A DNA stretch of 63,961 nucleotides, counting the filler, from Dugesia japonica (lineage: Eukaryota): the NCBI GenBank assembly GCA_001938525.1. It is 6 parts of 6 records of this genome, joined end to end, with 100 filler letters (N's around TTAATTAATTAA, not from the genome) between each part and the next. Parts side by side here need not be neighbours in the genome. Positions count along the whole stretch, not along the records: positions 1 to 10,695 come from MQRL01629975.1; 5 more parts are not named here. One strand, 5' to 3'. Position numbers and translations under genes: made by a program. The notes under the pieces were generated by a model that was given only the letters and a program-made list of their open reading frames with translations, searched no databases and was not told the origin of the DNA. Shown piece by piece: positions 2,038-8,229 of the stretch (its first letter is position 1; every line of letters starts with the position of its first letter).

Positions 2038-3510
2038 NNNNNNNNNNNNNTTTGATTTTAGTTTCTTAGTTACTGGTTCTGACACAATTTATATATAAAT
2101 CAAATTAGCATAATAAAATTACTAATGTACATTATCAATGTCACTAAAGAGGTTTGGGTTTTTTTTTAATTTTTACCCTTTTTTAAGAAAAACAAAACTA
2201 GGGCAAAAAAACCAAAAAGTGAAAAAAAGTAAAAAAAAACAGAGCATAAAAAATAAAAGAAACTAAACACAACTATTGAAAAAAATATAACAACTATAAC
2301 TCAAACAAAAAATTAAAACTTAAATTTAAATATAGAAACTTCAACATAATAAAAATGAAACTGTATTACAATAAATAAAAACAATGTTTAAAAAAAAATT
2401 TGATAATAAGCATATTAAAAAGACCATAGATTAACAATTAAATAAGACAAAGTTTTATTTTTAGTATTCAATTAACTACTCTTTTATTCGGAGAGAAAGA
2501 TGTAATTCAACAAGTATTAGGTTGTCACATATGAAATGTCTGATTTTAGAACTCGTTTTTTAAACTAATATATTTTTATGTAATATTTAACATTTAGAAC
2601 TTATTTATATATCATTTTGAAGGTGGAATTTTTGATTATCATTATATAATATTTGTTTTAAAAATCTATTTATTTAATTTATTTTTAGACAGCATGGAAC
2701 ACAAGCTAAAAAATACAGAAATGCGAACATTATTTTTATATGAATGGAAATTAAAGCATAACCCAAAAATGGGTTATTCATCACAATAGTAGACGTTCTG
2801 CTATATAGTTAGATGCCGATCAATCTCCTTTACACGGTCCTAAACCGAATTTACATCCGAAAAAGACAATGCTGACAGTTTGGTGATCTATAGCTGGAGT
2901 CATAGATTTTTCTTTGTTAGAAGAAGGTCAAACTATTAACTCAGACAAATACTGTTCTGAAATTGAATTAATGCAGAAAAAATTATGCATTAAACAGCCT
3001 TCATTGGTCAATAGGAAAGGAATCATCCTCTTGCAGGATAATGCCCGACCACATGTGGCAAAGAAGACGTCGCAAAAGTTGACAGACTTAAAAATTGAAA
3101 CTTTGCCACATCCACCATATTTGCCCGACTTATATTCGACAGATTATCATTTTTTAGGAATTTTGATAATTTTTTGGTTAAAAAAATCATTGCTGATCGG
3201 GAGGATGTCCAAATTCATAGACTCCAAAGAAAAAGATTTTTTTGCTAATGGTATTGTTGGGGTCCCACCTGAGTTGAGTGAAAGAGTTTGTGGCTGGGGA
3301 AAAACAGCCCTCAGGGAAACCCGTTCAAGAATTTAACATACCGCCCCTAGGGCAGGTTTTCAGTTCATGGCGGTTGACCTCTCTCTTAATTGGAGGTACA
3401 CATCCATAAACCTTTGTATTCGGGTTCAATCTTTTCCCTAATAACTTCAGTAAAAGAAAGAAAGTACAACATCAATTATATACATTTTATTTGATAAACA
3501 AAGAAAATAT

Positions 3511-3893
3511 TCATAACAAATCCAGCACCCCTGGGTCTAACCATTGGGTCGGATCGTTCACCGAGAAATTAAAAGCAGCGATATCATCGTTGTCGTCCCA
3601 CTGAATCCAAGTGGGATTGCCTATTTGACGAGAAAGATCGGCGATGNATTGCTTTAAAAAATCGATCTTTCTCATCAGCAACTGCTTGTTTTCGGCTTCC
3701 AGTGCCTTAGTTTGGATTACTAAATCGTTGTGTTTTTTAACAATGAAGTCTAGTTTCTTTATAGGTTTGTCCCTCTGGGCGAGATGTTTCAGAAGGGCCC
3801 TGTCCGCCTTACGCTTTAAATGCCTTTAGACAAGAAGTCGTCGCATGATACGGTGGCATCTTTGGATGCTGTTGGGAAAATTTATTCGTGGCA
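3511..3893 (-). pseudogene. LTR cassette ORF D (~127 codons, one in-frame TAA; not in the ORF track)
   Basis: CATTTAG|TG then PRINFPNSIQRCHRIMRRLLV*RHLKRKADRALLKHL...RKIDFLKQXIADLSRQIGNPTWIQWD...PGVLDLL*. Homolog at 46504-46847. AATAAA at 3486-3491 on the minus strand. Confidence 0.65.
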
Positions 3894-4027
3894 CTAAATG
3901 ATTAAACGTTAATGAGAGGACATAATTATTTAAGTATATTCGCATTATGACCAAATTAAAGTATAGTAATCAAGAAAGAAAGTAAAATTTTTTATAGACA
4001 AAACTTTTTATTAAATAAAATTATTAT

Positions 4028-4395
4028 CTAGCCAGGGGATCCCGATTTGGTTTGGATACTTTTATTAATCCTGAGTGGTTCTAGGTATGACTTGTCTTTA
4101 AGTGACAAAACGTCGGCGACCAGTTTATTTTCATTGTCCTGGCCGGACCGGATGAGCTCGGCAATTGATTCTACCTGTTTCTTCCACACACGTTCTTGCG
4201 AGTGTGAGGCCTTGGCTTCTTTTCTAAACTCTATACATTTTCTCTTATAACGTTTCACTTTAGCTTCGGCCGCTGCGGTTTCCGCTTCCCATCGCCTTTT
4301 AGCGAGGCGGTATAGATCCCATGTGAGTTCCATGTTCTCACTATCTTCTCGTAATTTTTTAGTCGGGGCCTGGGATCTATTCAATGACGAATGCA
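4028..4395 (-). CDS. LTR cassette ORF C (coiled-coil-like, ~122 aa, probable spliced terminal exon)
   Basis: Begins at the acceptor TATTTCAG|TG. The segment APTKK...TWDLYRLAKRRWE is shared with 47165-47374. AATAAA follows the stop. Confidence 0.65.
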
Positions 4396-5009: not shown

Positions 5010-5142
5010 TTCTAAGAATAAAATGAAGGTAATAAAATTCAAACACGATATTAAACGTTAGAAATTATTCGTATGATTAAATAAATGAAACACAAAGTTG
5101 GTCATAGATTTTATCGTAGGTTCGTCACTAAAACAAAAGTCA

Positions 5143-5322
5143 TTATTCGTCTAAATCTACCCCTAACTCCGAGACAAACATCTCCGCCAGACATTGAAGG
5201 TCTGTTTCATCAGGGTGTTCAATCCTTCCTTTGGTCAGCAAGTGGGCTATTGATTGTTTTGACCGGCTATTTCGTCGTTGCTTTTGTATCCAACGCAAGG
5301 TACGATATAACTCAGTTGGCAT
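5143..5322 (-). CDS. LTR cassette ORF A (59 aa, IEHPDETDLQ motif), unknown function
   Basis: MPTELYRTLRW...IEHPDETDLQCLAEMF. Intact homologs at 47961-48143 and 55815-55994. Acceptor-like TTTTTGTTTAG lies 1 nt before the ATG. Confidence 0.7.
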   Translation of the reverse strand: MPTELYRTLRWIQKQRRNSRSKQSIAHLLTKGRIEHPDETDLQCLAEMFVSELGVDLDE

Positions 5323-8229
5323 GCTAAACAAAAATGAAATCATTATTTACTATAACTTAGTCCCCCCAAGACAAATCATGGTCATAGACAATTATTTAAA
5401 TGGGAGGGTTGTAACAGTATCACCGTGATAATTAGTGATATACCCTGAATTTTAATCATAAACCGCTATTAAGAAGTTATAAAAGGTCCTAATTGGTTAC
5501 ATATATATTGCGATAATAATGTACCACTGGAATCAATTAGCGAGGAAACACTACCATGTGCATGACAACATCAGCAATGACGGTGCTAACAAAAGTCCTA
5601 AATGGTAATTACTCGTAAAATATGACCACTCCCAGTGGTTTCCAATAGTGAGACATATTTTAGATTAAATAACTAGTAATACAAGTTAATTGGAGTTAAT
5701 TTATGAATTTTTATTTTAATCGCTATAATAATTTTTTTTTAATAACAACAGTGATATTGAGGGGTAATAAGAGTAAATTCTTTAATTTTCGTGGAAGTCC
5801 TAATCTGGTTAACTTGCTATTTTTATATTTTAGTTTATTTTAAAAATCGGCGTGAGACCGTTGCTTAGAGATAACATTGGTGATGGTGTCGATTCTCTCT
5901 AGGTCATGGTGTGCATGTACAGTAGGAGTGAATTGCTTGTGTGTATCATTATATGACTCAGTCGCCAATTCTCTGTCATACTTATCAGATTTTTGATTTT
6001 GTTATTTTTGTAATTCTACTGGAAATTTAAGCATAATGGCACTGTCTCCGAGGGAAGAAAATAATCAACTTCACCGATACTTGTTTCACAATATTATTTG
6101 GCAGAAATCAAGAGAATGCCTGTGGCAAATTTTTAAGCGAATGGATTATTGCAGAACAGTTTACCCTTTTGGTATCAGCAGATTTTATGAATGAATCTCT
6201 TAGTTTTATCATCATTTATTTCTGAAGTGAGTCAAATTCTACCCATTTTCATTAAATAAAGATTAGAAAATTTATCTTTCTGTTTAATTGTAGTACTATA
6301 TGATGGAACGGATTTCCGATGTCCATTTTGACAGGTTATCATATATTTTAATAACGGTTTTAATAAAGGAAATATTTTATTCACGACGAAGGGATTTATG
6401 TCATTCTCATTTTAGCCAAACTATCGCCCTTATCTATTATAACTCTTATCGTAAATGATGAAACAATTAAGCATTTAGATTCGGATCAATGTATTTAAAG
6501 TTTTAACCATACAACATTTAACATAATACAAGGAAAAAATATACTTTACTTTTTATTATTGACTTGAGGGATTTCTGCAACGAGTTTCACAACGGCTGAC
6601 AAATTTTTGAATATAATACGTTTGAGAGTATCGGATTTGTAATTAATATTCCGTTCTGATTATAAGGTAGTTTTCTAGTTGGTTTTCCGTAATTCTACAA
6701 TAATTCTCGTTTATTATTTGGTAATAAATTTAGATGTTCGTACCAGTAAATAATTGTCCAAATTGAACGTATAGTGTCTAAGCTTAGTTATTAAGAAAAA
6801 TGATTTTTTTGTAATTAAATCAACCAAAATCAGAGTCTCTTTTATACGGATTCCCAATACAACCCGGCATCGTTGTCATTGAGTGGTTATTTTTAATTCG
6901 AATTCTCAAGTTTTTATTGGCGTTGGTGCTACGATTCCAGAATTTTTAGAGTTTTAGAGCTCTGATTGGTAAGTATTTTTAGAGGGCTATGTGATGGTTC
7001 TTTCTTTGTGTTATTTTTATTTTTAGGCCTCCTATTGGTTCAATCTTGTGGACCCTGCAGCAGCCTTCTGGACGATGGTAAGTTTTCCTTCTTGATAAAG
7101 CTTAATGCCCTTGTTGTTCTCTTCTTGAATTTTCTTAACCGGATTCCCTCCGACTTTCTTGACCAGAGTTATTCGCATAAAACAGATTTTGTCTCAATTT
7201 TAATTAATTTTTTCCGTTTAAATTAATTGTTATTTTTTGGTATTTATTTCTTCTTTTGATATTTATTTTCATTAATAATTCTATTAATTTTGTGATTATT
7301 ATAATTAATCACATTGAATTTGATCTTCTGAGTTTCCCATTTAATACTATTGTCGGGATTTTTCACACTTGCTTTTTTTTACCATGTTCCTTAATTTGAT
7401 ATTGGCAATTCATGACCCCCTTCAACCTTGATTTTCATTCATCTGGGTGTTTCGCCCCAACAGTATGTTGAAACTAGTTTCTAGATGACAAAAAGGTGTA
7501 GAATCCGATGGTGACTATTTTACTTAAATAAAATTTGATTTTATTGGACTTTTATTGATTTTATTGTCTATTACGTAATCGGTCATTTCATATGTGACAA
7601 CCTAATATTTATAGAATTTTGATGTTATTAATTTTGCTACATTTTCCTACATCAAAACATCCCATCCTCATAATAAAAATATATTTACTTATCATTTGAA
7701 ATCGCAAATAGTATACAGATAAAACTAACCAAACATAAAATTATATTCATTAATAAAATTTACTTTTGTTGACAGGATAACAGTAAAATAAATGCGAATA
7801 AATTAATTTCGTTTACAACAACAAAAAACTAAAGAAAGTAATACATAAACAATATTTGGTTTTTTGACAATATATGAAACAGCAAAATAGCAAAAACACA
7901 AAAATCAAACCGAACCGACAAAATAAAATAAAACTTTTATGTATGTCAGGTATAAAAAGCCGGGGATTGAAAAAATTATGAAGTTTTAACTATTATATTA
8001 TACAAGTTTATTCTCAGGCACCGTGGTGTTCGTAATTTTTTGAATTTATTTTTAATTTTCAATCTGAAAATGAAAATATTTTGCAAAAATTTTAAATTTT
8101 AATTTAAAAAAGTGTAATAGTAAAACTTAATGTTCATACAATGAAGCATTAGTATTTATTTGATTAATTATTTCGGTATACACAACATTGTGAGGAGTAA
8201 ATTATTTTGAATCATTTAGTAAAGATTTT

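Follow-up and report, generated by a model that had tools for sequence, protein, structure and literature searches.

How would four protein-coding genes lying side by side inside one long terminal repeat (LTR) be expressed? This question is raised by a stretch of 63,961 nt from Dugesia japonica (assembly GCA_001938525.1; 6 parts of 6 records; approximately 27% GC), referred to here as the window, in which a 4.2-kb insertion on the minus strand contains four open reading frames (ORFs), A to D. A preliminary description of this DNA had proposed that one LTR promoter and leader is spliced to alternative terminal exons, or that the array is an operon resolved by spliced-leader (SL) trans-splicing. 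Three copies of the cassette, all located within the window and comprising nine ORF copies in total, were compared (Table 1). We give an even chance to cis-splicing in which a single non-coding leader from the LTR is joined to alternative last exons and the splice itself makes the AUG of C and D.

The 4.2-kb insertion is the solo LTR of an LTR retroelement, with the minus strand as the sense strand. Its termini have the features of a solo LTR: TG...CA ends, a short inverted repeat and a 4-bp target duplication, GTAT. The LTR splits a decayed mariner-type transposon, the inverted ends of which lie at 2504-2545 and 7577-7618, and the final codons of the mariner transposase pick up again at 7463, beyond the LTR. 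The empty site was seen in poly(A) reads from other mariner copies, which cross the LTR with joints from 3243 to 7463 and from 3255 to 7468. An element end at 5416 (TGTAACA) was rejected, since mariner resumes only at 7463. The identification as a solo LTR is also based on the end block of copy 1. This block has 71-78% identity to 46257-46540 and, in inverted orientation, to 56249-56376, and at the latter place, in copy 3, it stands beside a primer-site-like motif, a gag-like ORF and a fusion-protein ORF. All three copies retain an acceptor-like CTCAG/G at a distance of 13 nt from the LTR end (3268 and 46270 on the minus strand, 56362 on the plus strand); conservation of the attachment site alone may account for this motif.

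ORFs A to D are real genes under purifying selection, because their synonymous sites are near saturation and their replacement sites are not. For A, B and C the proportion of synonymous differences (pS) was 0.75-0.93, compared with 0.18-0.38 for nonsynonymous differences (pN; Fisher p 1e-7 or lower); in the body of ORF D, 65% of the amino acids were identical, and the first, second and third codon positions carried 21, 20 and 50 differences. The present copies are decayed, with internal stops in B and D of copy 1 and stops or frameshifts in B, C and D of copy 2. The spacers between the ORFs show no alignment beyond that of shuffled sequence, since 15-49% of 200 shuffles scored as high. Antisense ORFs were rejected as true genes, and additional ORFs in the leader of approximately 1.5 kb were dismissed for lack of a conserved frame.

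In the Pfam, PDB and BFVD searches, no known family or fold was found for any of the A to D proteins. ORFs A, C and D had Pfam matches below the cut-off only, mostly to coiled-coil families. The structure model of ORF A (predicted local distance difference test, pLDDT, 76) matched nothing in PDB or BFVD at an E threshold of 0.001, so that a Rev-like fold for this protein was unsupported, and the model of ORF B was unusable (pLDDT 48.5). A full HMMER search identified one outside homolog of ORF B (P0006; E 1.1e-6, 37% identical, with the same start methionine), an unnamed 94-amino-acid protein on a 512-nt ENA contig. An alignment of ORF B yielded 0 of 46 homologs and its comparison with metagenome contigs 0 of 198; for ORF C none of 13 candidate homologs was confirmed, the atlas matches being low-recognition hypothetical proteins.

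An acceptor precedes the ORF in 9/9 ORF copies. A YAG is located 1-3 nt upstream of the start codon for all five cassette ATGs, compared with 115 of the 2045 ATGs in the window (5.6%), and under a stricter acceptor rule the numbers were 4/5 and 27/2045. When AGs were ranked by a simple pyrimidine score, written after the sites had been seen, the cassette acceptors took ranks 1, 2, 4 and 7 of 168 in copy 1, ranks 4, 5, 6, 7 and 12 of 190 in copy 2 and rank 1 of 217 in copy 3. The acceptor and ORF-start motifs quoted in the preliminary description were all found on the minus strand at the positions given there, and the AG positions are retained across the three copies although the spacers are unalignable. 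These signals have been selectively kept, because the spacers of homologous copies score no better than shuffles. A further strong acceptor-like site followed by TG (rank 3) lies at 5127, minus strand, between A and B of copy 1 and is not conserved in copy 2.

The poly(A) signal described earlier as lying shortly past the stop of B, C, D and the third A copy was borne out: AATAAA occurs 12-33 nt past the stop in 7/9 ORF copies and is missing after A in copies 1 and 2. Against a background of 18% per 40 nt in AT-rich DNA, this corresponds to a binomial p of 1.6e-4, or to p 0.02 when counted as 3/4 ORF types. The distance from AATAAA to the next acceptor is 102-236 nt and the spacers are 118-257 nt long. 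A carries an AATAAA solely in copy 3, where no further gene comes after it, and lacks a poly(A) signal when B is next; in copies 1 and 2, A and B would therefore have one 3' end in common, which refines the earlier picture of a separate end for each ORF.

The ATGs of A and B sit at +1, +3, +3, +2 and +1 from their acceptors, with no common phase, and a shared upstream exon must therefore be non-coding. Starting at the acceptor, ORFs C and D are open in phase 1 in all four copies, including both acceptor candidates for C of copy 2, and TG is found at the acceptor in 3/4 of these copies, the background after YAG being 6.5%. In C of copy 2, which has no TG start, an in-frame ATG is located 8 or 14 nt past the two candidates. 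For the 13 codons of D ahead of its first shared ATG, omega was 0.20 in phase 1 vs 2.87 and 0.66 in the other two (p 0.064); conserved codons upstream of the first ATG in copy 1 were also observed for C (omega 0.23, p 0.093). The earlier idea that a leader ending in A would create the ATG of C and D is compatible with all nine ORF copies. Splicing of some kind would be needed, because 27 ATGs precede ORF A (within 1,493 nt in copy 1) and because the conserved start of C and D lacks an ATG.

Upstream of the leader region, the TATA-like box of the promoter-like region was matched at LTR offset 615 in copy 1 and at offset 619 in a short sister LTR. Two such sister solo LTRs without a cassette are found in the window; the one at 49972..51250 bears the shared GAACCC motif near its end and was seen as an empty site (joint from 49967 to 51251). 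Relatives of the short sister LTRs are transcribed, with a poly(A) read depth of up to 78x (data set X4), far above that of the cassette. The gene content varies among these LTRs: none, A last, or A-B-C-D.

RNA evidence was sought for copies 1 and 2 in six raw-read alignments from five poly(A)/cDNA runs and in the contigs of two runs. B and C relatives are present in poly(A) RNA at low level: the read depth on ORF C was 0.2-1.4x in copy 1 (X4) and 0.6-4.6x in copy 2 (X4, X5, X8), that on ORF B was 1.3x in X7 (five reads), and A and D reached 0.3x or less. The loose ends of the X7 reads on B resemble B of a third subfamily. The junction reads at cassette acceptors for which the preliminary description called were not seen among the matches listed, where the depth of 0-4.6x is too low to decide, and no leader-bearing (SL) read was found among the same matches, at a depth too low to test for it. 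Contigs of X15, which may be DNA, showed joints from 47335 to 47699 and from 47736 to 48008, both at depth 22.3. These joints suggest a further copy with the order A-B-C, with resemblance to C stopping at its acceptor. A bubble rather than a splice was taken to explain two X15 contigs that end at 48149, and a joint from 5042 to 6962 in X1 was not used, since it lies off any acceptor and X1 may be DNA. An X1 contig matches the spacer at 4586-4619 and then runs into sequence like the CCAAT region of the LTR; together with the joint from 5042 to 6962, it possibly reflects LTR variants lacking the leader or part of the cassette.

Table 1. Features of the LTR copies, their cassettes and the associated element in the window.
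Feature	Position	Strand	Remarks
Solo LTR, copy 1	3255..7462	-	4,208 bp; ends TGTTGGGG...CCCCAACA; terminal inverted repeat; GTAT on both flanks
Decayed mariner-type transposon, split by copy 1 LTR	2504..7618	+	Pfam Transposase_1, E 3.6e-19
Conserved LTR end block	3255..3443	-	Common to copies 1, 2 and 3; 71-78% identity; approximately 190 nt
Promoter-like region, putative	6840..6970	-	CCAAT boxes close to 6969 and 6920; TATA-like box at 6846-6840
Leader or intron region	5324..6815	-	27 ATGs, 6 AATAAA, no strong donor
Copy 1 acceptor and ORF A	5143..5323	-	First exon base 5323, ATG +1; 59 amino acids, intact; two helices, the first Arg/Gln-rich; no AATAAA ahead of ORF B
Copy 1 acceptor and ORF B	4626..5011	-	First exon base 5011, ATG +2; ORF 5009-4653, 118 codons, one internal stop; AATAAA 4631-4626
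Copy 1 acceptor and ORF C	4007..4395	-	First exon base 4395, TG; phase 1 open 121 codons down to 4028; coiled-coil-like; AATAAA 4012-4007
Copy 1 acceptor and ORF D	3486..3893	-	First exon base 3893, TG; phase 1 down to 3511, with a single internal stop and one N; coiled-coil-like; AATAAA at 3491-3486
Copy 2 cassette	46257..48146	-	Order A-B-C-D as in copy 1; LTR end 46257
Copy 2 ORF A	48143-47961	-	Acceptor first base 48146, ATG +3
Copy 2 ORF B	47841-47514	-	Acceptor first base 47842, ATG +1; frameshifted
Copy 2 ORF C		-	Candidate acceptors 47382 and 47334, both phase 1; ORF carries stops
Copy 2 ORF D	46847-46504	-	Acceptor first base 46847 (TG); frameshift and stops
Upstream part of copy 2 LTR	48147..51600	-	Matches copy 1 at 7316-6939; interrupted by nested short LTR
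Short sister solo LTR without cassette	49972..51250	+	Approximately 1.28 kb; same start motif; CCAAT boxes; TATA offset 619
Short sister solo LTR without cassette	44659..46176	+	Approximately 1.5 kb; AATT duplication
Copy 3	55812..56400	+	Acceptor 55812; ORF A 55815-55994 (ATG +3); AATAAA; LTR end 56375; primer-binding-site-like motif from 56383
Copy 3 internal region	57824..63961	+	Acceptor-like AG and ATG 57824-57827; decayed polyprotein
Gag-like part, copy 3	58361-58981	+	Weak match to Drosophila Arc2 capsid, E 0.14 (best in PDB); no Pfam gag match
Fusion glycoprotein part, copy 3	63540-63959	+	Pfam Monjiviricetes_fusion, E 3.8e-9; 5.2 kb past gag

If the cassette is expressed by cis-splicing from a non-coding leader, transcription would start approximately 650 nt into the LTR, and a leader with A as its last base would join one of the four acceptors. 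Each of A and B would start at its own ATG, and both would use the poly(A) site past B, while for C and D the joint A/UG would create the start codon, each of these two having its own poly(A) site. ORF C of copy 2, which lacks the TG, would use its own in-frame ATG instead. The genomic RNA would be the unspliced read-through, and the gag-like ORF, which also begins with an AG followed by ATG, could be an additional target of the leader. As to the role of the proteins, our guess is accessory regulation of the element, for instance export of the unspliced RNA, by analogy with CERV, described as the spliced export factor of Cer1 (PMC10309623).

Several observations weigh against this mechanism. 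The leader of copy 1 contains no site with at least 6/8 matches to the donor consensus; that of copy 2 contains six, none shown to be homologous. Six AATAAA inside the leader would have to be skipped, TG is lacking at the acceptor of ORF C in copy 2, and the selection tests on the N-termini of C and D were both non-significant. No joint or loose end fell on any cassette acceptor of copies 1 and 2 among the matches listed. The placing of the cassette downstream of the transcription start is drawn from motifs, and a start near the LTR end is the alternative. Moreover, splice donors mostly end in G rather than A. A precedent in favor of the mechanism comes from the springer subclade, in which env is reported to be spliced to an AU that contributes to its start codon (10.1101/2023.08.03.551782). 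Of the leader-and-array proposal in the preliminary description, the layout of acceptor, ORF and poly(A) signal within an LTR, behind a TATA-like box, was thus recovered; a junction read and a conserved donor were not.

Cis-splicing in either form, with the leader non-coding or coding for C and D, is in our view probable. In the second form, a short coding first exon with a final G would be spliced in phase 1 to C and D, and A and B would be reached via another donor and start at their own ATG. The phase 1 of all four C and D junctions and the G with which donors usually end are in agreement with such an exon, as is the motif ATGG/GTAGAA, which copy 1 has at 6242 and the short sister LTR at 50801. 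This motif was not found in copy 2, A is out of frame with the putative exon in all three copies, and the TG at three of the four junctions would be left unexplained, as would its conservation in D despite the saturation of synonymous sites; we consider a coding first exon unlikely. The other branch of the preliminary description, an operon resolved by SL trans-splicing with poly(A) cleavage after each cistron, seems rather unlikely as well. The spacers of 118-257 nt stay within the 300 bp expected of such an operon, and the distances of 102-236 nt between AATAAA and the next acceptor are near those of flatworm operons, the intercistronic distance reported for S. mansoni having a median of 99 and a mean of 233 bp (PMC12582326), and the lack of a strong donor in the copy 1 leader agrees with trans-splicing. 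Cer1 is a precedent for a gypsy element whose spliced mRNA takes SL1 (PMC3315495). Flatworm spliced leaders are described as ending in AUG (PMC12582326), which would be read in phase 0. In this phase, C and D of copy 1, D of copy 2 and C of copy 2 from 47334 close after just 3-9 codons, and C of copy 2 from 47382 after 0 codons, so that the conserved N-termini of C and D would be left untranslated. Trans-splicing therefore fits C and D poorly; the absence of a poly(A) signal after A where B follows also speaks against it, and leader-bearing reads were none among the matches listed, at the low depth noted above.

It is very unlikely that splicing is absent today, each ORF having an internal promoter or the signals being relics of captured host exons. 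The C and D junctions read TCAGT or TTAGT, which is an invertebrate initiator, and no junction appeared among the matches listed. An upstream small ORF of 412/MDG1 is reported to be expressed unspliced via early polyadenylation (10.1101/2025.03.14.642691). Internal promoters would leave A and B with implausible 5' untranslated regions of 1-3 nt, and C and D without a start codon for their conserved N-termini, and relic signals would be expected to decay like the spacers. Chance AG and AATAAA motifs are favored by the low GC content, the frequency of AATAAA (18% per 40 nt), the partial dependence of the copies and the post hoc scoring; set against the 5/5 (vs 5.6%) and 7/9 (vs 18%) occurrences, and the positions kept through saturated synonymous divergence, they are an extremely improbable explanation.

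The 5' end of the copy 2 LTR was not located. Nesting of copy 2 in the LTR at 44659 was rejected, since that LTR stops at 46176. An X15 contig of depth 141 joins the leader region of copy 2 (48932) to an LTR start (44659), which suggests a nested insertion or a composite leader. Another LTR start was observed at 30519.

In copy 3, the end of the LTR is 78% identical and bears ORF A as its last gene, followed by the primer-binding-site-like motif and the gag-like ORF; the sequence upstream of A is lost in an assembly gap. The motif at 56383, which we take to resemble a tRNA-Pro primer site, starts 7 nt past the LTR end, a gap longer than usual. Between the primer site and gag, acceptor-like AGs on the plus strand are located at 56701, 56987 and 57824, with an ATG 5, 8 and 1 nt further on (ranks 2, 4 and 9 of 217); the first two open just 20 and 31 codons. 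Two tandem arrays are also found between the LTR and gag, at 57134-57473 (140-nt unit) and 56752-56964 (purine-rich units of 15-49 nt). No reverse transcriptase (RT) was found between the gag-like and fusion parts of copy 3, and pol lies beyond the window. The fusion fragment, sought among longer proteins, was found in 0 of 101. Matches to BIR, RING, MATH, ankyrin, BCL2 and CCHC knuckles amounted to 0 Pfam families in three read-through frames, a search insensitive in this decayed copy, where the known fusion match was also lost.

Elsewhere in the window, a decayed RT/RNase H remnant of a different gypsy-type element is located at 8365-10137 (minus strand). Genes of host type include an ETS domain at 12724-13437 (plus strand) with a GT-AG intron of approximately 80 nt, a DEAH helicase at 17618-20777, a Ulp1-like protease at 24648-25079 and a protein kinase at 40546-41484 (the last three on the minus strand). 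A 98-nt hairpin and tandem arrays of 26- and 47-nt units with CCAAT motifs occur at 33454-33664 and 33888-34457.

The order of gag and env in copy 3 suggests a gypsy-type, envelope-bearing element resembling planarian Burro. Burro (GYPSM1), a giant gypsy-like LTR retrotransposon of dugesiid planarians, is similar, as far as copy 3 extends in the window, in that gag opens a very long polyprotein and a mononegavirus-like fusion glycoprotein precedes any RT. Decayed copies with stops also occur there, and for the Burro of D. tigrina an accessory ORF upstream of gag is reported (PMC6431247). Section 7 of that account covers neither genes within the LTR nor an acceptor array. Burro1 is said, in a paper citing another study, to aid planarian stem-cell survival (PMC13465017), and in such a host the four proteins may be candidates for further regulation between element and host.

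In the usual view, LTRs are DNA with a regulatory role and a solo LTR is a dead end. With a selected gene array inside the LTR, solo LTRs could keep making proteins once the element is gone. We hold, tentatively, that the LTR may be a modular accessory-gene array resembling the adenovirus late unit, in which a single promoter and leader serve four alternative acceptors and three poly(A) families, start codons arise by splicing, and the gene content varies between subfamilies. If so, each solo LTR would act as a mobile unit expressing several genes, from four protein families of no recognized kind. Two puzzles are then raised: the genomic RNA would have to pass four acceptors and three poly(A) signals near its 5' end, and approximately 3.6 kb would have to be copied in the first reverse-transcription step. 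In the adenovirus major late unit, one leader is joined to alternative acceptors and the poly(A) families are co-terminal, although the genome there, unlike the present element, is that of a DNA virus. HIV nef and MMTV (mouse mammary tumor virus) sag are single ORFs in the U3 part of the LTR, whereas here four ORFs lie downstream of a TATA-like box.

Among retroelements, the env of springer-subclade errantiviruses is similar in being a gypsy-type ORF that gains its start codon at a splice joint; there, as described, one target lies behind pol and the joint is AU/G, whereas here four lie within the LTR and the predicted joint is A/UG (10.1101/2023.08.03.551782). The sORF1 and sORF2 of 412/MDG1 also lie 5' of gag as small accessory ORFs, a short transcript being produced by early polyadenylation. 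They differ in being two, with no splicing reported, and in that sORF2 is a membrane fusogen (10.1101/2025.03.14.642691); A to D lie inside the LTR, have acceptors and show no hydrophobic segment by eye. In Cer1 of C. elegans an acceptor likewise precedes the initiator ATG of CERV, the spliced accessory mRNA can take SL1, and splice sites are skipped in the long RNA (PMC3315495, PMC10309623). In contrast, CERV is described as one multi-exon protein of the internal region, and no LTR gene array is reported for Cer1 (PMC3315495, PMC10309623). At the level of titles and abstracts, no selected, variable four-gene array inside an LTR was found in the literature, and the primary Burro papers or their supplements may describe LTR ORFs. 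Each ingredient of the array, taken separately, has a precedent.

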